IMG/VR virus record: IMGVR_UViG_3300028025_003146
Span: 21,742-85,741 of that record
Source of the DNA: a virus
Lineage: Duplodnaviria > Caudoviricetes
Strand: one strand, 5' to 3'
Length of the DNA: 64,000 nt
Numbering within the stretch: position 1 is the first letter of the stretch; every line of letters begins with the position of its first letter. The translations under genes and the position numbers were made by a program. Below are positions 45,409 to 64,000 of this stretch, in pieces. The notes under the pieces are model-generated. The model had not been told where the DNA came from. It did no database searches and saw nothing but the letters and a program-made list of their open reading frames with translations.

Positions 45409-45496
45409 TTTATAATACCTTTTTCTCCGCCTGGCGGTTAATTTAAATTTAGTGTGAAGATCCTATTCTACCAAAGAACAGTTAAAAGGGGAAGTC

Positions 45497-46498: not shown

Positions 46499-46520
46499 GT
46501 TTTCTTTCTAGTTGACTGGC

Positions 46521-46550
46521 TTGACAGGCTTATCCTATCAATGTTATGAT
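46521..46550 (+). promoter_or_regulatory. Sigma-70-type promoter
   Basis: TTGACA-N18-TATGAT upstream of the transglycosylase gene. Confidence 0.6.
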
Positions 46551-46577
46551 TGTAGTTCGTTATCTCTAGAGGAGGAA

Positions 46578-47135: not shown

Positions 47136-47140
47136 GTCAA

Positions 47141-47347
47141 ATGCAGATACAATATGTATCTAAGTACATAGCCTTATCAGAAGAGGGCCTTGTTCCTAGA
47201 CTTGAATGTCCCATGGATCAGGGCTCTCTTCTATGTAACTTAGATTTAGAAGATAACATTTATTTATACTGCCTCTCCTGTGATTACAAGAACTACATAG
47301 GCCTAGAGGTATACGAGAAATTAGTGAAAGAAGTCAACAATGTCTGA
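47141..47347 (+). CDS. Zn-ribbon protein
   Basis: CPMD...CLSC. Confidence 0.7.
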   Translation: MQIQYVSKYIALSEEGLVPRLECPMDQGSLLCNLDLEDNIYLYCLSCDYKNYIGLEVYEKLVKEVNNV

Positions 47348-47513
47348 ACATGGATGTAGTAATTGCAATTGTGGTCAAGGACTGCAAATTAAAACAAAAA
47401 GTGCGTCGGCGGAAGAAGAGACCTTTTCTTCATATGAATTTGAATCAAGTGTCCTATTAGAGAAAGACTCTATGGGAAGAGAAATATTTTGGAACGATAT
47501 GGGGAGACCATAA
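47340..47513 (+). CDS. Small hypothetical protein (57 aa, not in ORF track)
   Basis: MSEHGCSNCNCGQG...KDSMGREIFWNDMGRP; coupled to neighbours. Confidence 0.6.
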   Translation: MSEHGCSNCNCGQGLQIKTKSASAEEETFSSYEFESSVLLEKDSMGREIFWNDMGRP

Positions 47514-47719
47514 TGGAAGAAAAAGAACCATCTAGAAATCTAGAAGACAACCTACCTATGGTGAATTATATAATGCTTCACCGTATTTACGATATGCTAA
47601 CAATTATGGCAAATGGAGTAGATCCTGAAAAGACGGCTAAGATGATTGATTATCATGAGCAAGGATATCTACTTGGACCTGAGCCATCATTTACCCCGTC
47701 TGAAAATCCTGTCAACTAG
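47513..47719 (+). CDS. Hypothetical protein
   Basis: TAATG-coupled start (MEEKEP). Confidence 0.65.
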   Translation: MEEKEPSRNLEDNLPMVNYIMLHRIYDMLTIMANGVDPEKTAKMIDYHEQGYLLGPEPSFTPSENPVN

Positions 47720-47724
47720 AATGC

Positions 47725-47753
47725 TTGACATATAAAATATTCCATATTACAAT
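47725..47753 (+). promoter_or_regulatory. Near-consensus sigma-70 promoter
   Basis: TTGACA-N17-TACAAT. Confidence 0.85.
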
Positions 47754-47759
47754 TAAGAT

Positions 47760-47849
47760 GTGTAGGTGACGGCAGCAATGTCTCCCTATATAATGTGTAG
47801 CAATACACTAGAAAGTCCCAATCGGATCCGCCTCTGATTGGGATTTTTT
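47760..47849 (+). ncRNA. Candidate small RNA (~90 nt): two GCAA-tetraloop hairpins plus terminator
   Basis: Lies between the promoter and a TCCCAATCGG/TCTGATTGGGA-T6 terminator; no credible ORF. Confidence 0.7.
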
Positions 47850-48271
47850 CTTATATAGACAATTAGGACATATAGTGCATATAGTGCGAAAAAAAGTGCG
47901 CCGAAAATAAGAACACCATATTTAAATATAGAGTATAATTATATTATGCCTAGACATTTTTCTAATTTATGGAATAGTCCTAAGAGTTTTAATAAGAAGG
48001 ATATTAGCGTCGAGCAGAAAATAGATAATATTATTCAAAAGATCAAGTTTAAGATCTGGAGCATCTTTAAAAAATAGCCCTCATACGCCCTCTACGGGGG
48101 TTTTCCAGCCCTAACGGGTCATATTTGGTATCTCCGATACTTGAACCCTTAAAAGGGCGGGAGAAAAAAGATTAGGGACTTTACCCTATAGATATAACAT
48201 ACGTTTATTTAGCTATATACACCAATGAGTAGTATGCACCAAGGATGATTAGTAATGACCATAGGAATGAT

Positions 48272-48487
48272 TTAGAACTGTTCATTGTCTATATCTTCAT
48301 TTAGGTCAAAATCAAAGAAGTCTTCTTGCTTTCCCGCCCAATTTAAGAATCTAGACATAGCAAGACCTGAGAAGACTGCTGTCGCAGTTAGAGTAATTAA
48401 AGCAAAGATCTTTTTCATATGTTTCCTGTCATATATGCAATTAAAAGAACCACTACTGGCCCAAATATAATTGTTGCCTGTAACCAA
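48272..48487 (-). CDS. Small membrane protein (probable start at MKKIF)
   Basis: Hydrophobic N-terminal helix, acidic tail. Confidence 0.5.
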   Translation of the reverse strand: MVTGNNYIWASSGSFNCIYDRKHMKKIFALITLTATAVFSGLAMSRFLNWAGKQEDFFDFDLNEDIDNEQF

Positions 48488-48883
48488 TTCATTTACAGTT
48501 ACAGTCTTTCTTTTTCATCTTCCACCACATCCAAATATGGTGAGCTGCCATGAGACCCATAAGTATCCACATTACTTGCATTTCAGTTATTCCTGAACCT
48601 GTGGCTAATACTATATTCTCGTGGTCATGCATTTTCTTTATTTTTCATAATATACGCATATTCCATGCCATGTGCCATGCAGTATCCAATAGATGGATCA
48701 TCTTTTCTAAATACAAATGATGGCAATGGGCATGTGTGTGCAGAACATCTATTCATAAATATATTATACCATAATCCTAGTCAACTGTAATATTTAATGC
48801 ATGATCTGAACAGTAATATATCATCTTACCTTCTAGAGTTAACTTAGATGTATATGAGATCTTGTCGCAATATGTACAAAAGT

Positions 48884-49168
48884 TCATGATGCCTTCTTTC
48901 CGTGCTTTCTCATATGAGTTCTTACTCTATGACAATTTGAGCAAACTATTTCGCATTTGGCTATTTCTTCATCCAGACGTTTCTTAGATAACGTATTAAT
49001 TAGTTCCGCCACATTTGAATGCTTTCGCCCACGGACATGATCAAAGTCCATCATATAATAGGGATATGAAATCTTACAATCCATACAAGGATTCTTTTCT
49101 TTAAGATCTTTTAAATACTGCGCCAGGAATTCTTTTTGTTTCTTGATCGATATCTTCTCTGGAGACAT
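48884..49168 (-). CDS. HNH-type endonuclease
   Basis: CMDC...DFDHVRG...KCEIVCSNCHRVRT; leaderless-type -10 six nt upstream. Confidence 0.8.
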   Translation of the reverse strand: MSPEKISIKKQKEFLAQYLKDLKEKNPCMDCKISYPYYMMDFDHVRGRKHSNVAELINTLSKKRLDEEIAKCEIVCSNCHRVRTHMRKHGKKAS

Positions 49169-49955
49169 ACCCCTATTATATTACATTATGTTTATTAAAT
49201 TACTTCAGTTGTGCTAAAAAGTTCTCTCTCCATTGAGATCTGTTGAACTTGTCCCTGATCCAACTTTGCTGTTGCTTCTTCTTCTGATCCCGCAATTACT
49301 GCTACTCTTACTTTTACATCGTATTGATATACATTGAATGTCATATTAATCCTAGTCGACTACTTTATAGATTCTACTAAATGTTAGTAAAATATTTTTT
49401 TAGAAGTATAGCTTCTATATTTGTTTTTATCTTTTTAATGATAACTTCCAGAATTTGAGCATACAACCCCTATACCCCTTTTATGATTTCTAAAAGAGAA
49501 CCCCGAAATGATCAGAGTATAAATCCGCCATTCATCGGTTGAACCTATAGTAGGCCTAGCTATTATCTGAAAGTAATTGTATAATACAACTTCCGTCATC
49601 ATCGCACTTGGAGTTTAACCCCTTGATATTATCTCCGAAAACTGTCCAAGGTTTACAGTATAGCATTTGGGATTTTCGTAAGTCAAGGATCCAGAGAATA
49701 TTTATTTCCCGCCCCCGTTTTGAAATTTGAGAAAATGTTAATATATTTTTAATATGTATGATACACACTATTTTTAATGTCCGATTTGTCCGATAGTGCG
49801 CCCATAACCCTATAATCTTGAGCGTGAGTGTGGTGTAACTCACAAAAATAGTTTGCGAATACTAGCGAGTAACCCCCCTAAATGTCAGTCCCCCCTGCTA
49901 GGATTATAGTATAAAGAAAATCAAGAAAGGTTCTTGATAAAGAAAGGAAAACAAA

Positions 49956-51109
49956 ATGTTTTCACTAAAATACACAGTAGGCTTAGGCTCTACTACCCTC
50001 CTAGTTCCTAGCGAGGAATACGCTAACGAGTATCTAGACCTAGTCTCACAGACTAGAGTTATAGATACAGTAACTCTAACCGAGTTACCTAACTACAAGC
50101 CTAGCAAGCGTGTAGTAATTGCTACTACTAGAAGTTGGGAGTAATCTAATGAACGATTATCTTGATTATATGGACGAAATCTACGAGGAACTCGTAGAGG
50201 AGTTCGGACACGAAATCGAGTCCGTGTGTGACCATAATCACACTAACGCCTAACGGCGTGTCGCTATACAATGTCGGCGCTATGCGCTACAATTCCTACT
50301 ATAACTACTAACGAAAGAAGAACAGATAATGACTATCACTTATACACTATGGCAAGGCTCTCAACTATTAGCCGTTAATCAAAAGGCTAATAAGCCCGAA
50401 GAAATCTTAGCGGTAATCGCTGAACTAAATAAACTCGGTAAGGGTTTCACTTATAACATTAGAGAGGTAGAGGTAAAGTAATGATGACTAAATGGGATAC
50501 TATCCAAGCAGATGTAGCAGACGCTTATGTCTATCTTGATGAAGAAGAAATGTATAACAAGGCATTAGCAGAAGGCGCAATAGACCTTGATGCTGATGAC
50601 TTTGATGAAGATGAATTACACAAGGCACTTACACTAGATTGGAATGACTAATGACTATAAACGGATTTGAGTTATACATAACAAGCGAATACGGATTTGA
50701 GTTTGATAGTTTCTTAGGGTCTATCTACTTACCTTGGCACACTATCCTAATCACTACCGCTTTAGTAATCGCCTATAAGATTTATAAGAGAAAGAAGAAT
50801 AAGTAATGACTACTAATCGCCTACTAACTACCGCCGTTCAATTACTACTAGCGGGAGTAACTATTCCGCTACTAATCGCCGTAATCAAAGACCTAAAAAA
50901 TGGGGGACTAAATGAGTAAATCACAATTAGAAAAAGATTTAGAAATCAAAGAAAGTTTTATAGATTTACTAAATGACATTTATCCAACTGTAAAGATTGG
51001 TTACTCAACTTTTACACCCGCCGAAATTCTAGAGTGTTGCGATCCCGTTGCGTTTGCAATCGGATTAGTAGAGCACCAAGATTATTTAGCAGAATTAGAA
51101 AATGAATAA
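49956..51109 (+). CDS. Cluster of small early genes (49956..50144, 50149..50253, 50329..50481, 50481..50651, 50912..51109 and further short ORFs)
   Basis: AAAGG/GAAAG Shine-Dalgarno sites and TAATG coupling; several strongly acidic products. Confidence 0.65.
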
Positions 51110-52161
51110 ATAAAAGCGGCGTGTCGGCTTGACAAAGTCGGCAGCTGCCCCCATCTTTTGTGGGCAGTTATCCACAGGTTTATGCACAGGTGTGGAAAAC
51201 CCTGGAAATTTGAGCGTAAGTTATCCACATGACCTAAATCACAAAAATAGTTTTCCGACACGCCCGAAAAAGGGGTCAAAATGTCAGTGGTCTATGATAG
51301 GATACTAGTATCAAGATTAAATAAGGTTTTAATCGTTAAAAGAAAGGTGGTCTTAAATGACTACACTAAATGAAACTCTATTCTCTACAATCGTTCACGA
51401 TTACCATAATGGCGGAGTAAAATCCTCTTATGGTTTAGATTCTTACACACGCAAGGAATTGCTTGCGTTTCTTATCCGTTCTACTAAATGCAATTGCATA
51501 AATTGCCTTTAAGAAAGTAGGTCTAACTAATGACTACTCTTTATCCTCTCCGCTCTATTTGCGGAAAATCCGTTTCATATGTCGATGCATATGATATCAA
51601 CTTTAATCCTAATGGTGCTATTTGTTGCGATAATTGCAACTCAATTTTAATTTGCCGTAAGGCGTGGGATTTTCTTTATAAAGGAGAAAATAAATAATGA
51701 ATAAATGCGATTCTTGTAAAAAAGAAACTACACAATTTGTTACCGATGATGGTGAATATTATTATCCAATTTGCGGGGAGTGTTACTAATGGAAAAAGAT
51801 ATTTTTGGATTTGCTGACGCAATAAATTTGGATCATCTAAATTTAGAGCAACTAAAAGAATTAGAAAAACTTTTAGAAAAAATTAAATAAACACGGCGTG
51901 TCAGCTTGACAAAAGCTGATGCGCCCACAAGGGTGCGGCGTCGGGCGTGTCGTTACGGAAATGTTATAAAAAACCCTGAAAATTACGGCGTGTCGATTTG
52001 ACAGACAAATCGGACATTTGGTGTGACGTTTATCACATTGGCCGTGTGATGCTTATCACATTCCCCACGCTCCACATATTGAGACAAACCCTTGCCAAAT
52101 TGGAAAATGTCAGTCCGTTCGTGTATAATGTCATCTATAACAACAACGAAAGAGGTGGCAG

Positions 52162-52362
52162 ATGTCAGCGAACGTCTACTCAGTCCAGTCCCTACTAGTG
52201 GGAACAAACTACTACTCAAACACTTTGCAGGGTGAAATTATTTCTGCAGAGGTTCACCCAAAAGCCGTATGGTATGACGGGTGCGAAACTTACTTGGTGG
52301 AAATTTCACCGAATAGCGGATACGGAACAAAATTCCGAACAGTCGCAGTAAAAACTCCATAA
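52162..52362 (+). CDS. Hypothetical early protein
   Basis: GAGGT Shine-Dalgarno behind promoter 52108. Confidence 0.7.
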   Translation: MSANVYSVQSLLVGTNYYSNTLQGEIISAEVHPKAVWYDGCETYLVEISPNSGYGTKFRTVAVKTP

Positions 52363-52858
52363 AATAAAATCGAAACAGGGGCAGTTTAGAGAGTGTTCTC
52401 GCCCAATGTCGTAAGTAAGAACTCTCACCAATTTTTTCAACGAAAGGAAAACTATAAATGGGATACATTGAAATTTTTAGAATGAATGAAGAGGGTGCGG
52501 GCTGGGTAGATTTATCCGAAGCAACTCCAGATGAATTATTCAACATCGAATTAGGTCTACTAGAAGAGGGGGCGTTCGAATGAACTTAGAAGAATTCAAA
52601 AAACACGTGATCGCACAACGTGAGGCAAGCAAGGCAGAAGCCTTGTCAGTGCTATCTGCTACAATTACCAAAACAAACGAAAGGGAAAACCTAAATGGCT
52701 AAAATGAAAGAATACATAGAAATAATCGCAGCGAATTGCGATGAATGCGGTGGCGCAGGATTTTTATTCTGGGGAACTGAAAATAATTATGACGTAGAGC
52801 CTTGCTCTTGCGTTGATGAAATTTCTGATGAACTAACACTAGATTGGATAAATAACTA

Positions 52859-53062
52859 ATGTATAAAATAACTTGCGCCTATGATAGCAACGCTCCCCAC
52901 TGGTCTGCCGAATATGAAAATGAATATGGTGCGTGGGAAAACTTTTTCTTATTCACCGACTGGGGAATGGCTAACGAATACTCAACTGTAAATCTATACA
53001 CGCCAACTGGCAAATGCTATACAAAAGTTTTCTATCGTAGTGGAATGGTGGCAGTAAAATGA
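52859..53062 (+). CDS. Hypothetical early protein
   Basis: ORF track; in operon with neighbours. Confidence 0.65.
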   Translation: MYKITCAYDSNAPHWSAEYENEYGAWENFFLFTDWGMANEYSTVNLYTPTGKCYTKVFYRSGMVAVK

Positions 53063-53250
53063 TGACACGAAAAGATTATATTGCAACGGCTGAAATTCTA
53101 AAGTATCTCAGCAATAAAGTTCACCCCGCTGTTTTTTCTAAAACTGTTCACGACTTTGCGGAGATGTTCGCAAAAGATAATGAGCGATTTGATGTAACAC
53201 GATTTCACGAAGCGAGTGGGTATAATGTTCCTAACTTCACTTCAAGATAA
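53059..53250 (+). CDS. Hypothetical early protein
   Basis: MTRKDY...FAKDNERFDVTRF, a pattern common in small phage proteins. Confidence 0.7.
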   Translation: MMTRKDYIATAEILKYLSNKVHPAVFSKTVHDFAEMFAKDNERFDVTRFHEASGYNVPNFTSR

Positions 53251-53356
53251 AGTAAAACGCATTCAGGAATTGCGTCGCAGTAATGCGGCGCAACCTGTTC
53301 GCAATAAAAAAAAATACACACGCAAAATAAAACATAAAAATAAATATTCAGAGTAA
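53225..53356 (+). CDS. Short basic peptide, ArfA-like C-terminus (43 aa)
   Basis: LRRSNAAQPVRNKKKYTRKIKHK; below the ORF-track length cut-off. Confidence 0.5.
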   Translation: MFLTSLQDKVKRIQELRRSNAAQPVRNKKKYTRKIKHKNKYSE

Positions 53357-53504
53357 TGCATAAATATGCGGCGCCCACAAAGCTACGGGGTCGGGCGTGT
53401 CGTTAAGGGTGTGATCTAAAACACCCTGAAAATTTGCGTGTCGATTAGTAAATGTCAGTCTAACCTGCTATAATTCCAATATCTACTAACGAAAGAGGTC
53501 CGTA

Positions 53505-53714
53505 ATGGAACTATTTACTGTCGCTTGCTTGAACTATGAAATTTGTGGTGCTCAAGAAACTTTCGATTCAATTGAAGAATATGAAATCTATGGTGATGAC
53601 TATACCTGCGCTGAATGCTATGACGCTGAAGAAATGGAATTCTATGAACTAACTGGCTGGGCTGATTCCGACGCTCTTGCGTCTGCTGGCCACGGAATGG
53701 ATGAGGATTACTAA
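53505..53714 (+). CDS. Small acidic Cys-containing protein
   Basis: C....C...CAEC; ends SDALASAGHGMDEDY. Confidence 0.7.
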   Translation: MELFTVACLNYEICGAQETFDSIEEYEIYGDDYTCAECYDAEEMEFYELTGWADSDALASAGHGMDEDY

Positions 53715-53745
53715 TATGTCAGAGGTCCAAGATATAATTACCCCT

Positions 53746-54465
53746 ATGAAACTAAAACGTTCTAATGATAGAAAGGTGGCTAACCTTGTCACAAAAAATG
53801 GAAAGCAGGCCGCAATTGCTAACACGTTCGGATTACCCGCAGGAAAAGATTTTTCATGTCCTGGCGCTACGTCTATCTGCGAGACTGTTTGCTATGCAGG
53901 CAAATTGGAAAAACTCTTCAAGGGAGTAAAAACTAATCTTCTTCACAATTGGGAATTGTTACGCAATGCAGACATGGAGACCATGTATCAATTGCTTAAT
54001 GAAATGATTATTGACTTTAAAGCCGATTGTGTAAAGAAAGACGCCCCTATGTTATTCCGTATCCACTGGGACGGAGATTTCTTTAATGATTTCTATACTT
54101 ATGCCTGGAAGAATGTAATCAATGAGCACACCGATGTTCAATTCTGGGTTTATACACGTGTAAAGTCTGCAGCGCTTATTCTTAAGGATGTTTCTAATCT
54201 ATCTCTTTACTATTCTACCGACGATGAGAATAAAGAAATCGGCCACGAACTAAAAGTAAATGAAGGAATTCGCCTTGCATACTTAGGGAAGACATTCGCC
54301 TTAACCGAAAGCACAATGAAAGAATTGACGGGCAAGCCTGGCGCTAAGTGTCCTGAAAATATGAAATCAATTCCACTAATTAGCAATGCAGGTTCTGCGT
54401 GTGTATCGTGTGGCTTGTGTGTTTATGGTAAAGCGGATATTAGATTTTCTGCGAGTAAAAAATAA
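53746..54465 (+). CDS. Gp88-like Fe-S / radical-SAM-like protein
   Basis: FGLPAG..SCPGATSICETVCYA, FRIHWDGDF, FWVYTR, CP...CVSCGLC as in the mycobacteriophage gene-product-88 family; probable leaderless start 7 nt after TATAAT. Confidence 0.75.
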   Translation: MKLKRSNDRKVANLVTKNGKQAAIANTFGLPAGKDFSCPGATSICETVCYAGKLEKLFKGVKTNLLHNWELLRNADMETMYQLLNEMIIDFKADCVKKDAPMLFRIHWDGDFFNDFYTYAWKNVINEHTDVQFWVYTRVKSAALILKDVSNLSLYYSTDDENKEIGHELKVNEGIRLAYLGKTFALTESTMKELTGKPGAKCPENMKSIPLISNAGSACVSCGLCVYGKADIRFSASKK

Positions 54466-54752
54466 TGGCGGATCTATTAGGTGCCATGCTAGGTGGCGGA
54501 TTAATGACTGTACTTTTTTTGCCCGTCCCTATAATAATTTGGATGATATTTAAAAGCATGTAGCGGCGTGTCGGCTTGACAAGATCAAGCTGGCCCGCAA
54601 AGGTGCGGGGTTATCCACAGGCTTACGGCAGTTATCCACAATGCCCTGAAAATGTGAGTATTATCACAAAAGCTGCGACACGCCGAGGATGGATTAGGTA
54701 ATGTCAGTGGCTAATGGTAAAATACTCTTATTCCAACAACGAAAGGTAACAA

Positions 54753-54977
54753 ATGTCAAATCTAATGAAAGTTCCACACACAGTAGTATTCGAGGCAATT
54801 ATTGACTTGGATAAAATCCCTGCAAACTTATTGCCTGCGCTAATTGCTCTTGATGAGAAATCAATTCAGCAAATGTGCAAGGAAGCAACACTACACGCAC
54901 TTGGTATGTCTAATGTATTACCACTTGCTAATGAAAATAACACTTGGGCTGAAGTAACTATTGCGGAAGGAAACTAA
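54753..54977 (+). CDS. Hypothetical early protein
   Basis: GAAAGGT Shine-Dalgarno behind promoter 54702. Confidence 0.7.
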   Translation: MSNLMKVPHTVVFEAIIDLDKIPANLLPALIALDEKSIQQMCKEATLHALGMSNVLPLANENNTWAEVTIAEGN

Positions 54978-54979
54978 TA

Positions 54980-55249
54980 ATGGGATACACAACTGCGTTA
55001 GCACTAGAAGAAGAATTAGGACTAGAAGCGGGATTAGCAATTCACTTGCAGGGTAATCACTACCCACCCGTTCCCGTATCAATGGTGCAACCTTGCATAG
55101 ATGCTATTGATGCGTTCTATGATGAGGAGTATAGTCGAGAGATTAATCTTCCTGAAGGTATCACTTGGCGAGGTCAGACTTCCTGCCCTGCGTCTGCCAT
55201 AGTAGATGCTCACCACTTAGAAGCGTGGCTACCTCAATACGAGGACTAG
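54980..55249 (+). CDS. Hypothetical early protein
   Basis: HLQGNHYPPVP...IVDAHHLEAW. Confidence 0.7.
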   Translation: MGYTTALALEEELGLEAGLAIHLQGNHYPPVPVSMVQPCIDAIDAFYDEEYSREINLPEGITWRGQTSCPASAIVDAHHLEAWLPQYED

Positions 55250-55365
55250 AGATCAAGATAGGCGTGTGAGATTACTCACACGCTTATCATCTCAAATAAT
55301 AAGATTGGGGTAGAAAATGTCAGACCCCTTTGCTATAATAAGACCCTAACAAGAAAGGAAGCAAA

Positions 55366-55539
55366 ATGACAATAGATAACAAAGTCTATCAGGTCGGTGA
55401 TTTATTCACTACCCTGAAGTCTAAGGAAACAGGAGTAATCAAAGAGATTATTCCTAACGCATCTGGCTCGGTGCGAGTTCGTCTGGAAACAGACAACGGA
55501 GAACGCTGGACAACAGTTCTTGCCGATAGCCTAGCGTAA
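55366..55539 (+). CDS. Small SH3/KOW-like protein (57 aa; paralog of 56135..56317)
   Basis: YQVGDLFTTLKSKETGVIKEI...ETDNGERW; own promoter and Shine-Dalgarno. Confidence 0.65.
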   Translation: MTIDNKVYQVGDLFTTLKSKETGVIKEIIPNASGSVRVRLETDNGERWTTVLADSLA

Positions 55540-55614
55540 TAAAACGGCAGGGGGGTTGTCAGACCCCCCTGCTATAATACTCATACCAACAACCAACCAA
55601 CGAAAGGTAATAAA

Positions 55615-56031
55615 ATGAGCAGACAAATCACAGTAAAGGTCGCAACGACCAAAGTAATCAAGGCACTAGAGGCAACTCTTGCTAAACTAGAAAATGATTA
55701 CAACACACAGGCAACAAAGGAAGCAAAGTTCGGCAAGGCGCAAGAAGCGTGGCGCAAGGAAATTGGCAAGTGGGCTATCGCTAACTTCTCAAAGGCTGAG
55801 AACCTTCGCACGAACTATCGCTCTTGGAACAACTCTCTCAATGTTGATTTTGACATCATCACAAAGGAAAGCGATTTCCCTAAAGAGCCTGAAAAGGATT
55901 TTGAGGTTATCCATCAGCACCAGTATCGTGAGATGAAAGAGGACATCACAAATGCCCTAACAATTCTCAAGATGACAGATGAGGAAACAGTAAATGCTTC
56001 TACTATGAAGCAGATTGCTAAGTATCTCTAA
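55615..56031 (+). CDS. Hypothetical early protein
   Basis: 138 aa; own promoter and GAAAGGT Shine-Dalgarno. Confidence 0.75.
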   Translation: MSRQITVKVATTKVIKALEATLAKLENDYNTQATKEAKFGKAQEAWRKEIGKWAIANFSKAENLRTNYRSWNNSLNVDFDIITKESDFPKEPEKDFEVIHQHQYREMKEDITNALTILKMTDEETVNASTMKQIAKYL

Positions 56032-56134
56032 ATAGGTTTTGGGGGGTTAGCACACAAAGTCTAGACACCTGAACCCAAACGACCTGAGTAAGTCGCAAAA
56101 CTGCTCAACCAACCAACTACCGAAAGGAAATAAA

Positions 56135-56317
56135 ATGTCACCAATTCTAGATACCGCTAAGGGTCGCTTCTACCGCAAGGGAGATGTATTCACAACTGGC
56201 AAATCAGGAATTACTGGCACTATCACAGAAATCGTTTCTATTCGCCCAACACTAACTAAACTAGGGCTGAATACAGAAAATGGTCTGCGCTGGGCTATGG
56301 TAAAAATCGGCGCATAA
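56135..56317 (+). CDS. Small SH3/KOW-like protein
   Basis: YRKGDVFTTGKSGITGTITEI...NTENGLRW. Confidence 0.65.
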   Translation: MSPILDTAKGRFYRKGDVFTTGKSGITGTITEIVSIRPTLTKLGLNTENGLRWAMVKIGA

Positions 56318-56386
56318 TCTAATGGGGGCTAGACAAAATCTAGCCCCCAATGTTATAATTCTTATTCCTACTAAAGAAAGAATAAA

Positions 56387-56614
56387 ATGAAAAATCGTTA
56401 TCGTGTAGAAATCTATGACGCAAACAAAGCAAATGATGTAACAATTTATTCAGAGCAAGGTGTAGATAGAGATTATCTAACTGAATTAGTTTTTTCTAAT
56501 TTGCGTAAGTTCCACGGAAGAGTAAATGCTTACGTGTATGACAATGTAAAAAAGAAAAAGGTTACAGCAATGTTCCTTGATGAAAGTATAACTAATAAGT
56601 TCAAAGCAATTTAA
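56387..56614 (+). CDS. Hypothetical early protein
   Basis: ORF track; TGTTATAAT upstream. Confidence 0.65.
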   Translation: MKNRYRVEIYDANKANDVTIYSEQGVDRDYLTELVFSNLRKFHGRVNAYVYDNVKKKKVTAMFLDESITNKFKAI

Positions 56615-56837
56615 AGTAGTGGCGGGATCTTGATCGGTCCCGCCGCAGCTTTGCTAATGTCGACAATGCCCGCAAAGGTGCGGGGTTATCCACAGCCTTA
56701 CGGCTACCTGTGGAAAAACCCTGAAAATTTGTGAGATTACTCACACGGATCAATTCGGACATATTGTAACTAACCATTGATAATGTCAGACCCACCTGTT
56801 ATAATAAACCTAACAACAAACGAAAGGTAAAAAATAT

Positions 56838-57845
56838 ATGGCTCACAATCTCGAAATGGAAAATGGCGAAGTTGCTTTCGCTCTCCGTGGCGCACCTGCT
56901 TGGCACAACCTTGCAAACCGCATCTTTGCAAAAGATGAGGAAGTTACAACTCAAACAATGCTAGATGAAGCAAAACTTTCTAATTGGAATGTTCGCTTAT
57001 CTCCATTGACCGACCACATTTCAGAATCTTGGAATGATGTATCTCAGGCATCTCTTGTCATTCGTGATAACCCATTCAATAAGGGTGTAGATGTTCTCGC
57101 AACTGTTGGCAAGCGTTACAAGCCTGTGCAGAATGAAGAACTATTTGCATTCGCTGATGCAATTCACGATGCCAATGCTGATTGCCGTTGGGAATCTGCT
57201 GGCTCACTAAAAAAGGGTAAAGTTGTTTTTGGAACTGTAGATATTCCACGCACAATGGTTCTTGACCCACAAGGCGCTAATGATGAAACTAAACTTTATC
57301 TTATCGTATGGACATCACACGATGGTTCTGTTGCTGTTCAAGCAGCCGTTACTCCTGTTCGTGTTGTATGCCAAAACACGCTAAACCTTGCAATGAAGAA
57401 TGCTAAGCAATCTTTCAAGATTCGCCACACGCAATCTGTTGAAGGTCGCATTCAAGTTGCTCGTGAAACTCTTGGGCTTGCTCTTGGATACTTTGATGAA
57501 TTCGAAGTTCAAGCAAAAGCACTTTACTCACAAGCAATCACCGATGCTGAATTCTCTAAGTTGATTCAGACAATTTATCCTAAGCCAGATAAAGATGCAG
57601 CAAAAGTTGCGCTAACTAAGTGGGAGAACAAGGTTGTTCTACTTGATGACCTTTATCATAACTCACCAACTAACGCTACAATCAAGGGAACAAAGTGGGG
57701 TGCGTTCAATGCACTAACTGAGCGCCTTGACTATTTCCGTTCAGGTCGTGGCAATTCTGAAACACTTATGGCGGGTGCATCAGGCTTTGACCCAATTCTT
57801 ACCGCAGAAAAAAATAAGTTGTATCGAATGGTTGCAACTTTCTAA
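56838..57845 (+). CDS. DUF932-family phage/plasmid protein
   Basis: MAHNLE...PAWH.L, VGKRYKPVQNEE.F, ESAGSLKKG, TSHDGS, TPVRVVCQNTL, IRHT, GTKWGAFNALTE. Confidence 0.85.
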   Translation: MAHNLEMENGEVAFALRGAPAWHNLANRIFAKDEEVTTQTMLDEAKLSNWNVRLSPLTDHISESWNDVSQASLVIRDNPFNKGVDVLATVGKRYKPVQNEELFAFADAIHDANADCRWESAGSLKKGKVVFGTVDIPRTMVLDPQGANDETKLYLIVWTSHDGSVAVQAAVTPVRVVCQNTLNLAMKNAKQSFKIRHTQSVEGRIQVARETLGLALGYFDEFEVQAKALYSQAITDAEFSKLIQTIYPKPDKDAAKVALTKWENKVVLLDDLYHNSPTNATIKGTKWGAFNALTERLDYFRSGRGNSETLMAGASGFDPILTAEKNKLYRMVATF

Positions 57846-57884
57846 ATAATAAAAATCCTAGGCAAGATTTAAAACTGCCTGCAA

Positions 57885-57961
57885 GATCTCTTAGCTCAGT
57901 TGGTTAGAGCGCTACCCTGTCACGGTAGAGGTCACGGGTTCAAGTCCCGTAGGGGTCGCCA
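57885..57961 (+). tRNA. tRNA-Asp (GTC)
   Basis: Acceptor GATCTCT/AGGGGTC, D-arm GCTC/GAGC, anticodon arm CTACC-CTGTCAC-GGTAG, T-loop GGTTCAAGTCC, discriminator G, encoded CCA. Confidence 0.93.
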
Positions 57962-58077
57962 AATAGATTTGTCGACAATGCCCGCAGTATTGCGGGTGTG
58001 ATTTTAATCATACGGGGATCATAAAAAAAGCCCTGGAAATCCTTGTAAATGTCAGTGGGGTCCGCTATAATACTCAC

Positions 58078-58734
58078 ATGATGACAACCAACGGAACTAA
58101 ATATACATTCGTCTGCGACCCAGATGAATGCGACACATTAATCGAAGTAACCTGTGTTTCAGGATTCGATTTCCCTAATGGTGTGATTAAACACACATGC
58201 CCTTGTGGTAGAGAAATGTCATACATCTCTGCTACAATACTCTCATCAACAAACCAAACGAAAGAGGAAAAAATGGAAGAGACAACAACACCTGCAGTAA
58301 CAATTCCCGATACATATAACCCAAACCTGTTGGTTACCTACAAAGTAATCCGTGGTTATTCTGACCCTGAATATGCAACCGATAAGGTTACATCAATTGA
58401 ATGGGACCTACACAATGCCCGTCAAGCACAGAAGCACAATGGCGTTCTTCAAGATAAGATTAATACAGTTAAAGATATTATCACTGAGGCATACGCCGAT
58501 TCAGAAGACCAAGATACACTACGTGCAATTGCCGAAGCGCTTGGCATTGAACTAGTTCGAGAAGTTCTATTCACCGCAACTCTTGAAGTTAGCGGAACAT
58601 ATACATACAATGTATTAGATTCAGATTATGAATTGGACCTTGATTCAGAAGTCACAGATGCTCTTTACGCCGATTCAAATAACGGTAACATCACAATTGA
58701 TGACACCGAAGTTTGCCACGTAAGGGAAGCGTAA
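58078..58734 (+). CDS. Hypothetical protein (Zn-ribbon N-terminus; internal start at MEETT has its own promoter)
   Basis: CDPDEC...CPCG; internal promoter at 58217 and GAGG Shine-Dalgarno. Confidence 0.65.
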   Translation: MMTTNGTKYTFVCDPDECDTLIEVTCVSGFDFPNGVIKHTCPCGREMSYISATILSSTNQTKEEKMEETTTPAVTIPDTYNPNLLVTYKVIRGYSDPEYATDKVTSIEWDLHNARQAQKHNGVLQDKINTVKDIITEAYADSEDQDTLRAIAEALGIELVREVLFTATLEVSGTYTYNVLDSDYELDLDSEVTDALYADSNNGNITIDDTEVCHVREA

Positions 58735-58946
58735 TGTATTTTGAGTTGACTGCTCCCGATAGGCTATCTCTTGAGATGGCTTATTGGGATGCACAAATCA
58801 CTGGACTCGACCCTGAGTTTATGCCACCGTTGACATTCAATGTTGGAACTGGTAGTATAGAGAAAGTAAGTCGCATTCGTGACAAGTATAATTTAAAAGA
58901 ATCATACTGGTCAGATAGAGAAGCGACAGGATATAAGGAGAAATAA
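58734..58946 (+). CDS. Hypothetical early protein
   Basis: TAATG-coupled start (MYFEL). Confidence 0.65.
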   Translation: MYFELTAPDRLSLEMAYWDAQITGLDPEFMPPLTFNVGTGSIEKVSRIRDKYNLKESYWSDREATGYKEK

Positions 58947-59088
58947 TGTCAGATTACAAAGATGGTTTTGATGACGGGTATAAGTTTGCTCGTGAAGAGA
59001 TGATGGAAAGACTATCAGAGATTGATATTAACGATATCGATACTTGGATTCTTGACCGTCTTTGTGAAATGATAGAAGGCGGGAAACT

Positions 59089-59298
59089 ATGACAACCGAA
59101 GACTTAACACGATGGATCGGCTGTGATCAATGCGGTACAGCTCAAGCTAAGTATCTAATTAAACTAGTAGACGGTGAGCTTTTCTTTTGCCACCACCACT
59201 ACAATAAAAACAAAGAGGGCCTTGACAAGGTCTCGTACGAAGTGATAGACTTAAACAAAATCGAAGAAGCAGCACCTATACTAGAAACGGCGGAATAA
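59089..59298 (+). CDS. Small Zn-finger protein
   Basis: CDQCG.AQA...ELFFCHHH. Confidence 0.7.
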   Translation: MTTEDLTRWIGCDQCGTAQAKYLIKLVDGELFFCHHHYNKNKEGLDKVSYEVIDLNKIEEAAPILETAE

Positions 59299-59299
59299 A

Positions 59300-59665
59300 A
59301 TGGGCGACAGAGCAAACTTTGGATTCAAGCAATCTAATGACACTACTATCTTTCTATATGGACACTGGGCGGGCCACGGTATGTTGGAGCGCTTAGCGAA
59401 TGCGGTTGAGACTGCACGTCCAAGGTGGACGGATGAGTCATATGCAACACGTATTTGTGTGTCACAAATGGTAGGCGAAGACTGGAAAGCAGAAACAGGC
59501 TGGGGCTTAAGTGTTAATAGAATTCTAGACAATGAGCACAAGATTCCCGTCATCGATTGGGCCACTCAAACATTTACTTTATTTGAAGAGGACCTGACTA
59601 CAGAAGTGTTTAGTTTATCTTTAGATAAATTCTGCAGCAAATACAGTCAACTAGTTATGGTATAA
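59300..59665 (+). CDS. Hypothetical early protein
   Basis: MGDRANF...IFLYGHWAG...RPRWTDESYATRI. Confidence 0.75.
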   Translation: MGDRANFGFKQSNDTTIFLYGHWAGHGMLERLANAVETARPRWTDESYATRICVSQMVGEDWKAETGWGLSVNRILDNEHKIPVIDWATQTFTLFEEDLTTEVFSLSLDKFCSKYSQLVMV

Positions 59666-59788
59666 TTGGAGTAGGTCCAGGGACCTTCTTCATGAGTACA
59701 GGTGCGGCTACCAGGGGATCCCCCAAGTCGCTAAGCAATGCAGGGCTTTTTACTTTCGTTGGTAGATCCTAGCGGCCTTTACTTTCTT

Positions 59789-59816
59789 AACCCTCAGCGC
59801 AAGCTGGGGGTTTTTG
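59789..59816 (+). terminator. Intrinsic terminator
   Basis: AACCCTCAGC-GCAA-GCTGGGGGTT-TTT. Confidence 0.8.
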
Positions 59817-59993
59817 CTTGCCCGCAAAAGCAGAGGGTATCATATTTTGTTTACGAGATCAAATTAAATTTCCCTGGAATTTTGTGATCTTGACCACATA
59901 GCTTGGAAAATGTGGTGTGAAACACACCCAAATAGTATTCCAAATGTCAGTGGTCCATTGTATAATTGGAACATATCAACGAAAGGATATAAA

Positions 59994-60785
59994 ATGCCAA
60001 ATTGGTGTTATAACACATTAACTATCCAAGGACCTAAGTCTGAGGTAGATATGATTAAAGATAGATTGAATAAGCCTTTTACATTAGCACAAGAGACTTA
60101 TGGTATGGGTGATATTTCTACTATGGGGTTCCCCACCAAAATTGAACAGGTAACTTATTCTAATCCTGTCTTTGCTTTCTTTAATATCCACTCATATAAA
60201 GATGAAGGTATTACTGATGAGGAATATGCCTGCCAGCCTTCTCGTGGTGGTATAGATATTCAGAATGACCCTGATTGGTTCCGCAAATCTGTTGAGTTTG
60301 CTAAGACTCAGAAGGATTGGTATTCTTGGAATAATTCTAATTGGGGAACTAAATGGGATGTAGCCGTCCGTGACGGAGATGAATATCCAAATACAGAACT
60401 ACTTGAATATAAATCTGAGGGTGATGACAATTGGGTTGTCTACAAATATGAGACTGCTTGGTCACCTGCTGTAACTATCTTAACTAAACTATCTAATCTT
60501 GTTCCTAACTGCCTACTCACATTAGAGTATGAGGAAGAAACAGGCTGGGGTGGGGAATATGAGATTGTCCGTGGTGAAGTAAAGGAACTATTAGAATATG
60601 AGAACCGTTGCTATGCTTGCCAGTCTTTTGATTGTGTTGAGTATTGTGAGAATGACTGCGGTGAATTCTGCTCAGAATGTAATCAAGGCTCTTGGCAGGA
60701 TGATAAGGCAATGGCAGAATGTCAGACCCATAGTGTATTATTACCTTTGAAAACCTACACACAAGAGGAGGCATTAAATGTCTGA
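59994..60785 (+). CDS. DUF1281 / YubB-like ferredoxin-fold protein
   Basis: MPNWCYNTLTIQG, DWYSWNNSNWGTKWD, YETAWSP; start 59994 with GAAAGGA Shine-Dalgarno. Confidence 0.8.
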   Translation: MPNWCYNTLTIQGPKSEVDMIKDRLNKPFTLAQETYGMGDISTMGFPTKIEQVTYSNPVFAFFNIHSYKDEGITDEEYACQPSRGGIDIQNDPDWFRKSVEFAKTQKDWYSWNNSNWGTKWDVAVRDGDEYPNTELLEYKSEGDDNWVVYKYETAWSPAVTILTKLSNLVPNCLLTLEYEEETGWGGEYEIVRGEVKELLEYENRCYACQSFDCVEYCENDCGEFCSECNQGSWQDDKAMAECQTHSVLLPLKTYTQEEALNV

Positions 60786-62493
60786 GCAATTTATAGACAC
60801 AATAGCAGAGCACATTACAGGCGCTATTCAACAGGAAATCTCTGAGCACCTATTTGACCAATGGTCTGCAAAGAATTTAGATGAAGGTCCTGACTACGCA
60901 GAGCATATGTTTATGCAATTTGCGTCAGACGGACTAAAGCAACAGTATAACGAATACTATGGCTACATAGAGGGAGATGAATACTTACTATGAAAAACTA
61001 TGCATTCGTAATTAAATTAGCAGGTAGTGTAATGGCTAATAATGAGAAGGAAGCACATAATAAAATTAATGCTCATCTAGACGAACTAGGTGAAGTAGAT
61101 AGTTCAAGATATGATTTAGGTTGGCCTGAAGTATCTTGGGATATGGAATATGACTTATGCTAGGTTATACTGAATCCGATCTAAATAGGATGATTAATGC
61201 TGTTCACGATGCTAAGTTATTCTATCTTAGATACCCGTCCGATTTAATGGACAAGACAGAACTTAGAACTGATTTAGAAATGGCGGTCAGCTTTATGCAA
61301 GGCCTATGGGCGGAGGGCTACTTTGACTAAGTCATCAAGGTTTATGGAGTATCTAAAGATACATCTAATTAGTTTAGAGCAGGACTTAGAACAGATTGAT
61401 TATGTAAATGGTCATCACTTCTATAGAGTCAAGCAAGCAGAGATTGAGAATACCAGGCACATTTTGTCAGTGGCGACTGATATAATGAATGAATCTAACG
61501 AAAGGGTATATGGATGAAACTATCATCAGAAGTAAAGGAAGACCTGCAGGACCAAGCCGACCAAATCATTTACTTTGAAGCAGCAATGTCCAATGAGGAC
61601 AAAGCCTCCAAAGCGGTCTATGAGCGCCTTGTAGAGATTTACAAGGTTGCATTCAAGGAAGGTGCCAAGAGCAAATGACACCTGAAGACATTGGACTACC
61701 ACCACACCTGCAACGTCTAGTTAATTATGATGTTAATGGATTAGATATAATGCACGGTGAACTAAAGAATCTAATGCTAATGGCTGAGCAAGACTTAGCA
61801 AGCGCATTAGAGCAAGAGGAGTTGTCTGAAGAGGCAATGGATTCTATGGTCCGAACAGAATGTGAAGGACGACTAGATACTCTAACAGAACTATATAATC
61901 TAACATACCAACTATCGTTTGCTATAGCAGAAAGGCAAGGGCAAAAAGTATGACATACGAGCCAAGTCTGGAAATCCTGGAAGTTGAATACTCTTGTAGT
62001 CCAGGAGGAGTTGATCTATTTGAAGTATATGATAAATCTGATATACCTTTGGATATGCCAATATATGAGACAGAAGATTTGACCAAAGCGGTCCTATTCT
62101 GTTACAATTTAGGAAAAGACTTTACCGTCAGAACATTAGCGGAATGGAATGAAAGGGAGTTAGCATATGAAGCCTGATGATAAGATTAAACTAAATGAAT
62201 GTTTGAAGATTCTTGATTCCACCGACCTTGGATTATCCCTGGTTTGGTTATGGACATGGAGCACAATTAAAGGAATTCTAGAGGACGAGACCTACAGGGC
62301 CAGTGTTACTGAGGACCAGATGTGGGACAACCTCTGTGAGGCCGTGGAGGCGGGTATGGGCTTCTCTCTGGAGTATGGGGCAGAGCAACATAACGAAGAC
62401 GTCCTTGAATGGATGTTGAACCGTGACTACATTGTAGACACAATGTTTGAGGAAGAGGAAGACGAAGAGGATAAAGAAGATGAAGATGAGTGA
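60778..62493 (+). CDS. Run of small, mostly acidic early genes (60778..60993, 61323..61517, 61675..61953, 61950..62177, 62167..62493 and shorter ORFs)
   Basis: Overlapping stop/start junctions and Shine-Dalgarno sites. Confidence 0.65.
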
Positions 62494-62718
62494 TCAACAC
62501 ATTGACGCCGTCCTCGCAGAGGCCCAAAAGCTTCTGTGGGGCGGATCCGAGACTGAGAACATTGCAGCTCACAACCTTATATCTAAACTAATACAAGATC
62601 GTATGTCAGAAACAACTTTAAACTAAGGGCAAATTGTCCGCTTTACGGCAGGTATTTACAAACCCGTGAAAATCTGCTACAATTAATGAAACAACTTATC
62701 TCGAAAGGATAAAACCAA

Positions 62719-62871
62719 ATGCAAACAAAGCGTGAATATCTCAAGCAGCAAGGAATTACAGTGGGTGTACGTGGACGTTTCTCAGGAGCTGCTAAGGTAG
62801 CTATCCAGGAAGCTATCAGCAAGGGCGTTACATTCTCAGATCCACAGCCAGTTACCAAGAAGGCTAAGTAA
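62719..62871 (+). CDS. Lsr2-like DNA-binding protein (C-terminal domain only, 50 aa)
   Basis: KREYLKQQGITVGVRGRFS resembles the Lsr2 IREWA..NG..VS.RGRI AT-hook; GAAAGGA Shine-Dalgarno; missed by the ORF track. Confidence 0.7.
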   Translation: MQTKREYLKQQGITVGVRGRFSGAAKVAIQEAISKGVTFSDPQPVTKKAK

Positions 62872-62878
62872 ATAGATC

Positions 62879-62919
62879 GGAGGGGTGGTGGACGAGAGTT
62901 GCCACCCCTCCCCATTTTT
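62879..62919 (+). terminator. Intrinsic terminator
   Basis: GGAGGGGTGGTG/TGCCACCCCTCC stem followed by a T-run. Confidence 0.7.
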
Positions 62920-62957
62920 GATATAATGAGTAGTTACCAAGGCGGAAGGCGGAGTAG

Positions 62958-63380
62958 ATGAAGACTAGAGAAATCAAAGTAGCAGAACAGTTAGTTAATC
63001 TAACAGAAGACCATTGGTTTAATCCTGCCATATTGGCAAGATATCTAACAGACCAACCATTTTATACAGTTGACCGCATTATGGAATTAGTTGCTCAGAT
63101 TATTCGTTGGGAAGCAAACAGATATAATGATGAATTAACTACAGATTCAGGCATATATGATTCAGGTCTAACATCTGAAGGATTGTTCCTAGCAAATGAA
63201 TTAAATAAAACTCTTAATAGATTAATTAAGACTTACAAATGGGAGAATCTAAAACTTCCAATCGACCCTGACAAGTTCATCAAGAAGTTGCCAAAGGTGG
63301 AGGAAAAGAGTTATAGACATTCCTGGTTGCATGACAAGGATACCAGGACCCATGTAACGATTGACCATCCATTCATCTAA
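62958..63380 (+). CDS. Hypothetical protein
   Basis: 140 aa; GGAG Shine-Dalgarno. Confidence 0.7.
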   Translation: MKTREIKVAEQLVNLTEDHWFNPAILARYLTDQPFYTVDRIMELVAQIIRWEANRYNDELTTDSGIYDSGLTSEGLFLANELNKTLNRLIKTYKWENLKLPIDPDKFIKKLPKVEEKSYRHSWLHDKDTRTHVTIDHPFI

Positions 63381-63604
63381 TGGGTAAGTTAGTCCAAAAG
63401 GTTGAGGGTCCATTTCCTACACCGCAGCAATTAAATAAATGGCTAAAACAAAATGGGGATAACCTACCGAAGGTAGGCTTCCGTGCAGCCAACTTCAAAA
63501 CGATCAACAATTGCACATCAGCTCCAGCTTTATTAAAGACAAGGCGGAAGACGGGGATAGCTCTTATCAATGCTAGAAAGATAAGAAACATCAAAGTCCA
63601 TTAG
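63380..63604 (+). CDS. Small basic hypothetical protein
   Basis: TAATG-coupled start. Confidence 0.55.
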   Translation: MGKLVQKVEGPFPTPQQLNKWLKQNGDNLPKVGFRAANFKTINNCTSAPALLKTRRKTGIALINARKIRNIKVH

Positions 63605-63639
63605 ATTTAACTAAAGGCAACATATACTTAGTTGGTTAG

Positions 63640-64000
63640 TATATGGCCCAAATTATCCACAGGGTTATCCACATCCTGTGGATTTTTTGTGTGTGGGCAT
63701 GTGGGCAAATTTTTTCCTTTACGACAGATCAAAAAAAATCCCTGAAATTGTGGGCAGATTTTCTCGTTTACGAGAGCATATTAAAAATCCCTCAAAATGT
63801 CGACAAATCTATATAGAATCATATAGATCTATATATAAACATATACTAAATCTAATAGAATGTGATCAAAATATGCCAGAATTTGTCAGAATTTTTCTAC
63901 GAAAATCTATTGACAATGAGGGCAAAATATGCCATTTACGAGGCTATTGACAAAATCCCTGAAATTTGGTAGATGTGTCCATATGCCTCCAAGGAAAATT
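63640..64000. other. Origin-like non-coding region (DnaA boxes, tandem 49-bp units, AT-rich tract)
   Basis: DnaA boxes at 63653, 63665, 63677; units at 63700, 63749, 63917; AT-rich 63806..63860. Confidence 0.55.

Follow-up and report, generated by a model that had tools for sequence, protein, structure and literature searches.

The stretch of DNA considered here, referred to below as the window, consists of 64,000 nucleotides corresponding to bases 21742-85741 of a linear virus record (IMG/VR record IMGVR_UViG_3300028025_003146, Caudoviricetes). The record is 85,741 bp long and is estimated to be 79% complete, and the genome is about 110 kb in size. The minus strand of the window carries the portal, protease, capsid, tail-fibre and further structural genes. 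The plus strand carries about 45 small open reading frames (ORFs) that form a putative early or host-takeover module, the early block, which starts at 49956 and runs to the contig end at 64000. Distributed over the early block is an array of 16 sites in which the hexamer TGTC(A/G)G, or in one case TGTCAT, is followed after 10 nt by a −10 box of the form TANNNT. An earlier note on this DNA had interpreted these sites as promoters of the type recognized by PafBC, an actinobacterial activator of the DNA-damage response, and had proposed that the phage has wired its early genes to this sensor. The evidence bearing on that proposal is described below.

The promoter array

The pattern TGTCRG-N10-TANNNT was searched for on both strands of the window, and 100 dinucleotide shuffles served as the control. 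There were 16 matches in the window, compared with 1.04 expected (standard deviation, 1.07), and none of the 100 shuffles reached this number. Fifteen of the matches are on the plus strand between 49883 and 61486. The remaining match, on the minus strand at 1403-1424, lies beyond the array region and is probably due to chance. A relaxed scan of the full 85,741-bp record added the TGTCAT variant at 58217-58238 on the plus strand, which brings the array itself to 16 sites, and the plus strand of the whole record holds no further TGTC[AG]G-type site beyond the array. The earlier note had given the same count, coordinates and strand, and the three examples that it quoted are letter-perfect. The comparison with shuffled sequence and with the rest of the record, which it had suggested as a check, likewise came out in its favor.

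Every box sits ahead of a small plus-strand ORF. Promoter 1 (49883-49904, TGTCAG-N10-TAGGAT) is predicted to drive a 62-aa ORF at 49956-50144, and promoter 2 (50272-50293, TGTCGG-N10-TACAAT) a run of small ORFs at 50329-51109. The next four promoters, at 51282-51303, 52108-52129, 52644-52665 and 53453-53474, all begin with TGTCAG-N10 and end with TAGGAT, TATAAT, TACAAT and TATAAT, respectively. Promoter 7 (53717-53738) has a leaderless layout, in which the ATG of a GP88-family gene at 53746 follows 7 nt after the −10 box. It is succeeded by promoter 8 (54702-54723, TGTCAG-N10-TAAAAT), promoter 9 (55318-55339) and promoter 10 (55557-55578), the last of which has a 10-bp GC hairpin (55547-55572) with TGTCAG in its loop. 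Promoter 11 (56784-56805) is predicted to drive a DUF932 gene. Promoter 12 (58050-58071) is again leaderless, with the ATG of a 218-aa ORF at 58078, 6 nt after the −10 box, and promoter 13 (58217-58238), the TGTCAT variant, lies inside this ORF ahead of an in-frame ATG at 58273 that is led by a Shine-Dalgarno sequence. Promoter 14 (59945-59966) would drive a 263-aa DUF1281_C-like ORF. Promoter 15 (60720-60741) reads TGTCAG-N10-TATTAT, and promoter 16 (61465-61486), the last of the array, is followed by an operon of small ORFs. All of these promoters are on the plus strand.

Promoter architecture and translation starts

The −10 box, TAnnnT, is mostly TATAAT or TACAAT and is often accompanied by an extended −10 TG. 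An A-rich triplet precedes TGTC, and TGn is frequent before the −10 box. In the sequence logo, the two TGn positions are T in 66% and G in 79% of the sites, and the −10 boxes are near consensus. The information at the −35 positions of the 761 distinct sites in the logo does not exceed 0.43 bits and reflects A-richness only, so that a −35 consensus is absent. Canonical −35/−10 sites are present in the same part of the window at 46521 and 47725 (both TTGACA-N17/18), 56330 and 62899. The region from 47136 to 49882, between the minus-strand genes and promoter 1, is AT-rich (35% GC) and contains short ORFs only, on both strands.

Two other explanations of the hexamer were tried and rejected. In one, TGTCAG was taken as the reversed −35 element (CTGACA) of a divergent promoter, and the logo has no matching −10 box upstream. 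In the other, the TGTCAG in a hairpin loop at 55557 was taken to indicate hairpin promoters of the N4 type, and such a stem is found at a few sites only.

Most often the −10 box is followed by a ribosome site of the GAAAGG type and then, at 27-32 nt from the box, by an ATG; alternatively, the ATG follows 6-7 nt after the box. In relatives, this second, leaderless arrangement has been retained at two promoters, where it opens an ORF of 206 aa or more; it accounts for 66 of 728 distinct contexts and persists while the bases between the −10 box and the ATG change. The leaderless geometry fits a transcription start just after the −10 box as well as actinobacterial habits. In the contig of one relative, the sequence upstream of 53746 is replaced by a Shine-Dalgarno-type leader, which supports the ATG at 53746 as the start of the GP88-family gene. 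The ORF at 58078-58734 on the plus strand has nested starts, 218 aa being encoded from promoter 12 and 153 aa from promoter 13 and the ATG at 58273, and two isoforms from these promoters are possible.

Conservation in related phages

Conservation was examined in the best 80 of 292 IMG/VR relatives of the DUF932 protein, with loci totalling 1.31 Mb. The array recurs in all 80 of these loci. The gene strand holds 1141 of the boxes, compared with 3 for the opposite strand. In three complete relatives (110-116 kb), the boxes are confined to one block of about 12-14 kb. The constancy of the spacer, to which the earlier note had drawn attention, extends to these relatives as well. On the gene strand of the window and the 80 loci taken together, a spacer of 10 nt occurs 1156 times, one of 9 nt 7 times and one of 11 nt 8 times.

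The pattern of substitution was assessed in 406 distinct orthologous promoter sequences, which were aligned by BLAST anchoring and not conditioned on the motif. Within the hexamer, TGTC is conserved in 99.8-100% of the sequences, the fifth position in 90% and the final G in 98%. The T, the A and the final T of the −10 box are conserved in 99.5-99.8%. By comparison, the spacer is conserved at 58-87% and the discriminator at 54-69%. Similarly, TGTCAG is invariant among 45 distinct promoters of the DUF932 gene while the spacer changes. The conservation of the boxes next to a drifting spacer indicates that both are under strong selection at a fixed distance. It is close to certain that the 16 sites are real, selected promoters of the SigA type and that they form a distinct class with a −26 box.

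The contigs of relatives also vary in gene content at these sites. In three sequencing runs, the sequence at 52426 is joined straight to the TGTCAG at 55557 by a short GC hairpin and AAA, and other contigs diverge exactly at the first base of a promoter (positions noted, 54700 and 53746). Because the variant joints fall exactly at the boxes, the promoters bound gene cassettes that come and go.

Host group of the phage

The portal protein is at most 59.8% identical to the portals of Streptomyces phages with genomes of 127-134 kb (251 records). Among the Streptomyces phages, Jay2Jay, BillNye and Muntaha are classified in the Stanwilliamsviridae, and as judged from its portal the phage is a relative of this family. 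WhiB is found above the Pfam cut-off in all five complete relatives of 110-117 kb. In work on freshwater viromes, whiB is described as serving as an actinophage marker (PMC6802176). The WhiB of the relatives and the Streptomyces-phage-like portal show that the host is an actinobacterium, despite the low GC content of the phage (39%; 35-42% across the window), and the actinobacterial setting assumed in the earlier note is thereby upheld. When the early block was compared by megablast with 50,697 phage records, nothing matched. Among the minus-strand genes, a 2286-aa ORF that occupies 1-6555 and continues upstream in the record resembles a very long tape measure protein.

When genome contigs were searched with the phage WhiB, a single matching locus was found, encoding a WhiB of 59% identity in a metagenome-assembled genome (MAG) labelled 'uncultured Aquiluna sp.' The contig concerned is 57 kb long, has 41% GC inside a MAG of about 52% GC and carries no promoter box. 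Its phage-like genes include WhiB and a RecA-like ORF, and the contig probably derives from a phage and was binned with the cell genome. A query of the ESM Atlas with the phage WhiB returned viral WhiB clusters only and no pointer to a host.

The phage group is common. In addition to the 292 relatives of the DUF932 protein in IMG/VR, parts of the early block were found in 24 listed sequencing runs, and all four of the freshwater metatranscriptomes examined, from four studies, contain the block; the other 20 runs share small fractions of the sampled words. The metatranscriptomes consist of assembled contigs, which cannot show start sites, strands or expression levels. Mean depth is low at 47336-49336 and 45335-46001 and higher over the early genes, which is not evidence of transcription and was not used as such.

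Match to PafBC promoters

The motif obtained for PafBC by chromatin immunoprecipitation in vivo is given as tGTCgg(N10)tA(N3)T, with the 5′ part at −23 to −28 and no −35 element, and the GTC triplet, which is read by residues R46 and R50 of PafB, is reported to be strictly conserved in actinobacterial recA promoters (PMC8635444). PafBC is described as being activated by short single-stranded DNA (ssDNA) (PMC11804915). The phage box agrees with the PafBC class in every sequence feature, namely the GTC, the spacer of 10 nt, the TAnnnT and the absence of a −35 element. The assignment of the motif to the RecA-NDp or PafBC type in the earlier note, with its −26 element, and the statement that PafBC is switched on by single-stranded nucleic acid are both in line with these sources.

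The host side was examined in one low-GC actinobacterial genus, the candidate genus, which was entered through the match of the phage WhiB to one MAG. Exactly two WYL ORFs, adjacent to each other, are present in 25 of 26 genomes of this genus. The pair from one of these genomes best matches the halves of PafBC in the structure 6sj9 and PafB and PafC in 7p5x, and the arginines of the RMFERDK motif, which read GTC, are kept. Additionally, a box of the form aaa-nGTCnn-N10-TAnnnT precedes recA in all 23 loci recovered from the candidate genus, 79-82 nt after a LexA box. In a class-wide sample, the box was found before recA in 24 of 24 published loci, 22 of which have TGTC. At recA loci the hexamer is followed by the same W-S-S triplet (TGG, ACC, TCC etc.) as in the phage. 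In one genome of the candidate genus, the box is also found before genes for RmuC, a DnaQ-like exonuclease and an XRE protein, the last of which adjoins recA. Each whole genome contains 2-13 matches to the pattern, no more than a reversed-pattern control, and thus the box is not a general promoter in this genus. The phage block, with its 16 sites, exceeds a whole candidate-genus genome in this respect.

The earlier note had seen no activator gene in the window. Profile searches bear this out and extend it to complete relatives, as no WYL domain was found in this record (0/1) or in further sets of phage records that include complete relatives (0/5 and 0/6). Similarly, Sigma70_r2 was found in neither this record (0/1) nor six phage records (0/6), and MotA_activ was not found in six records at E ≤ 1; AsiA was not searched for. 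The search for pafB/pafC or WYL genes that the note had suggested therefore gave none in the phage records and an adjacent pair in nearly all genomes of the candidate genus.

Distribution among other phages

A scan of IMG/VR for AATGTCAG-N10-TATAAT returned at least 120 loci, and 75 of the 120 listed have three or more relaxed boxes on one strand. Some of the box-bearing loci share almost no sequence with the phage described here. A second lineage is represented by three records whose portals are only 50% identical to that of this phage, two of which contain WhiB. These three records have 8-14 boxes, and five loci of this kind span 8-16. The boxes of the second lineage are mostly TGTCAGTGG, often lack the extended −10 TG and are followed by weak −10 boxes such as TAGTGT, TACTGT and TAAGTT; leaderless cases with N6-ATG are also present. 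Since the TG is often missing and the −10 boxes are weak, recognition in this lineage must depend on the upstream box, which is thus the core recognition element across lineages. Box use does not simply follow portal similarity.

Genes of the early block

Among the 45 ORFs of the early block, Pfam matches are limited to DUF932, GP88, DUF7455 and DUF1281_C, and there are matches to 12 PHROGs. The GP88-family gene (PF17338; 53746-54465, plus strand) encodes a protein 50% identical to that of Jay2Jay gene 10, and the product of the DUF932 gene (56838-57845, plus strand) is 49-50% identical to that of a terminal-region gene of Streptomyces phages. The DUF932 gene is followed by a tRNA-Asp (GTC) at 57885-57961 on the plus strand, and an Rfam scan of 46000-64000 found no RNA element besides this tRNA. 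A 50-aa ORF at 62719-62871 on the plus strand resembles the N-terminus of the Jay2Jay Lsr2-like protein, with 45% identity over 47 aa. Its product might be a mimic that consists of the oligomerisation domain only and disturbs the silencing of AT-rich phage DNA by host Lsr2.

The homologues of the GP88, DUF932 and Lsr2-N-terminus-like ORFs all lie within the first 5.3 kb of Jay2Jay. Moreover, the DUF932 homologue occurs in two places in each Streptomyces phage record and is therefore in their terminal repeat. Taken together, the terminal homologues in Jay2Jay and the duplication of DUF932 suggest that the early block is probably the counterpart of the terminal-repeat early module of the related Streptomyces phages, its terminal location resting on the homologues in Jay2Jay, as a metagenome assembly cannot reveal a collapsed repeat. 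The promoters of the terminal-repeat genes of Jay2Jay (1-10.5 kb) have the form ccGGACA...TTGTAt-N17-TAGACT, followed by a cGAAAGGG-type ribosome site. In the window, too, several promoters have a CGGACA upstream.

Palindromes and other intergenic modules

A second recurrent element of the early block is the palindrome TGTGA-N6-TCACA. Allowing at most one mismatch, there are 10 copies in the window, all within 49829-59898, compared with 2.5 expected, and 9 of the 16 promoters have such a palindrome upstream. Copies are found at 50227-50242 (45 nt before promoter 2), 54653-54668 (49 nt before promoter 8), 55265-55280 (53 nt before promoter 9) and 56730-56745 (54 nt before promoter 11), and two palindromes at 52022-52060 are 86 and 63 nt before promoter 4. 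Copies with one mismatch are found at 49829-49844 (54 nt before promoter 1), 57997-58012 (53 nt before promoter 12), 58182-58197 (35 nt before promoter 13) and 59883-59898 (62 nt before promoter 14). The half-sites of the copy before promoter 11 are invariant in 45 distinct orthologues, in which the centre varies. In the window and the 80 related loci, 456 of 463 exact palindromes precede a box by no more than 120 nt. Palindrome-to-box distances have maxima at 34, 44, 54, 64-65, 75 and 86 nt, which corresponds to a period of about 10 bp; a minority are at 49 nt.

TGTGA-N6-TCACA resembles the consensus of CRP or GlxR sites. In its placement the palindrome is reminiscent of CRP-type class I activator sites, and it is an accessory element. 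The second phage lineage is nearly without palindromes, with none in five loci and one in a sixth. No Crp-family protein was found above the cut-off in five phage records, and in the candidate genus, with the host itself uncertain, HTH_Crp_2 gave weak partial matches in 4 of 26 genomes and cNMP_binding a match in 1 of 26. The idea that a host Crp reads the palindrome thus found no support, the candidate genus having hardly any Crp-family protein.

Further repeated modules make up the intergenic regions, among them GGCGTGTCGgcTTGACAa, a GC hairpin, GTTATCCACA and CCCTGAAAAT. Copies of GTTATCCACA, which resembles a DnaA box, are found on the plus strand at 51167, 51220, 54610, 54631, 56685 and 63664. 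The nearly identical sequence GTT(A/T)TCCACAG is found between the LexA box and the PafBC-type recA box in most genomes of the candidate genus. At 51115, 51892, 51984, 54562 and neighbouring positions there are further repeated modules, AGCGGCGTGTCGGCTTGACAA (4 copies) and the hairpin GCCCGCAAAGGTGCGGG. The sequence CCCTG(A/G)AA(A/T)T has 9 of its 10 copies inside the early block, and together with AGCGGCGTGTCGGCTTGACAA and GCCCGCAAAGGTGCGGG it forms a stereotyped cassette after stop codons.

Interpretation and alternative explanations

It seems on balance probable that PafBC of the host reads the phage boxes, because the box equals the host recA box in sequence and spacing, pafBC is present in the actinobacteria examined, and no recognisable reader is encoded by the phage. 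Under this interpretation, ssDNA would bind to the WYL domains before PafBC acts. The helix-turn-helix of PafB would then read GTC and PafC would bridge to region 4 of the sigma factor, a mode of action termed 'sigma adaptation', and the SigA-type RNA polymerase of the host would transcribe about 16 short units of small genes. Transcription would start 6-7 nt after the −10 box, presumably early in infection, and would be coupled to ssDNA arising from the infection or from host DNA damage. Of the wiring to PafBC proposed in the earlier note, the motif, the actinophage, the recA box in the company of pafB and pafC and the absence of a reader gene from the phage have all held up; the reading of the sites by PafBC and their early expression remain predictions. 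That the array acts as a decoy that titrates PafBC away from host repair genes is speculation. The most far-reaching version, in which a widespread uncultured actinophage clade runs its whole early programme via PafBC, takes ssDNA or sunlight damage as its 'go' signal and drains the repair regulon with 16 high-affinity decoy boxes, must be considered rather doubtful.

Several observations weigh against a role for PafBC. In four cultured Streptomyces cousins the motif is at background, with 0-3 copies per genome, and the array is absent, so that a host with PafBC is not sufficient for an array. The box may have been present ancestrally and then lost from the Streptomyces branch; the alternative is that phages took it up where hosts favour it. 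PafBC depends on ssDNA, which would be a strange prerequisite for the first genes of an infection. The strong −10 box and extended TG of most sites might allow them to fire without an activator, and 4 of the 16 sites also score as partial −35/−10 promoters. A small DNA-binding protein of no known family is possible among the roughly 45 unannotated ORFs of the block. Lastly, the link to the genus Aquiluna is a weak association through one contig and does not amount to a host call.

One rival explanation is that TGTCAG is read by a protein of an unrecognised family, made by the phage or delivered with the virion, which recruits the host RNA polymerase in the manner of MotA; in that case the promoters would be 'middle' promoters and the likeness to PafBC would reflect convergence or mimicry of its geometry. 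A total of 41 of the 45 block ORFs have no Pfam match, and the canonical −35/−10 sites at 46521, 47725, 56330 and 62899 could drive the first gene of such a scheme. The lack of the array in the Streptomyces cousins, whose hosts have PafBC-type recA promoters, would also fit a lineage-specific factor. However, none of WYL, Sigma70_r2 and MotA_activ was found in complete relatives, and the phage box equals the host recA box not only in sequence and spacing but also in the flanking aaa and W-S-S. In addition, the array is common to a lineage with a portal identity of 50% and almost no shared early genes. An unrecognised phage protein is thus considered unlikely. A scheme that dispenses with any activator, in which the SigA holoenzyme alone fires the promoters through the extended −10 TG and the strong −10 box and TGTCAG is a repressor or shut-off operator or a joint for cassette recombination, is quite improbable. 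It gains from the frequencies of T and G in TGn (66% and 79%), the near-consensus −10 boxes, the intergenic regions made of repeated modules and the cassette joints that fall exactly at the box, as in the junction of 52426 to 55557 in three runs. Nevertheless, the box is not palindromic, the second lineage keeps TGTCAGTGG at N10 at many sites that lack the TG and have weak −10 boxes, and recombination alone would not hold six bases at 98-100% beside a drifting spacer.

Host factors other than PafBC have also to be weighed, as the true host may differ from the candidate genus and further WYL regulators are described in actinobacteria, for example SiwR (PMC10693628). Recognition of the box by another regulator of the WYL or helix-turn-helix kind, or by an alternative sigma factor, is nonetheless very improbable. 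In 25 of 26 genomes of the candidate genus, the only WYL ORFs are pafB and pafC. The −10 box belongs to the group-1 sigma type, and the phage sites share their upstream box with recA, the textbook target of PafBC (PMC8635444).

Relation to known systems and significance

The phage boxes share with PafBC (RecA-NDp) promoters the hexamer tGTC(g/a)g at −28 to −23, the spacer of 10 nt, the TAnnnT, the lack of a −35 element and the invariant GTC, and the same box is found at recA. They differ in that they are located on a phage genome of the lytic type, with 16 boxes in 11.6 kb, in having much stronger −10 boxes (TATAAT, extended TG), and in driving small genes of unassigned function and not repair genes. 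The middle promoters of T4, which depend on a MotA box and on sigma appropriation by AsiA and MotA, are similar in that they serve a phage programme and have, in place of a −35 element, an activator box located downstream of the usual −35 position and ahead of the −10 box. In T4 the activator and the co-activator are both phage-encoded, and the spacing of the middle promoters is flexible. In contrast, MotA_activ was absent from the six records searched in this phage group, a comparison limited to MotA because AsiA was not among the profiles used. A comparison with MotA and AsiA of T4 is also drawn for PafBC itself (PMC8635444).

With the terminal-repeat takeover modules of SPO1, T5 and the Stanwilliamsviridae, the early block has in common the dense packing of small genes, a promoter and ribosome site for each or every few of them and an orientation divergent from that of the structural genes. 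In SPO1 and T5, the terminal repeats hold the host-takeover modules. Jay2Jay differs in that its terminal promoters are of the −35/−10 type. The block also resembles the promoter-early stem-loop (PeSL) cassettes of T4-like phages, in which a repeated early promoter and hairpins bound small mobile cassettes; in the present phage group, variant joints likewise fall at the promoter.

Phages hijack LexA circuits or bring their own sigma-remodelling proteins. To our knowledge, PafBC and sigma adaptation have been described solely as a response of the cell to DNA damage. A search of the full-text literature found no report that links PafBC, RecA-NDp or a host WYL activator to phage promoters. A paper from 2025, cited in PMC12848934, reportedly concerns pafBC and resistance to mycobacteriophages.

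If PafBC of the host does read the boxes, there would be a simple link between the sensing of ssDNA and the take-over of the cell by the phage. This would also explain how a phage with 39% GC could be transcribed strongly in a host of higher GC content without a −35 element. Actinobacterial genetics would, moreover, gain a compact and portable promoter, one expected to be responsive to DNA damage. Because the phage group is common, as indicated by the 292 relatives of one gene in IMG/VR and the 24 listed runs, the effect could matter ecologically.

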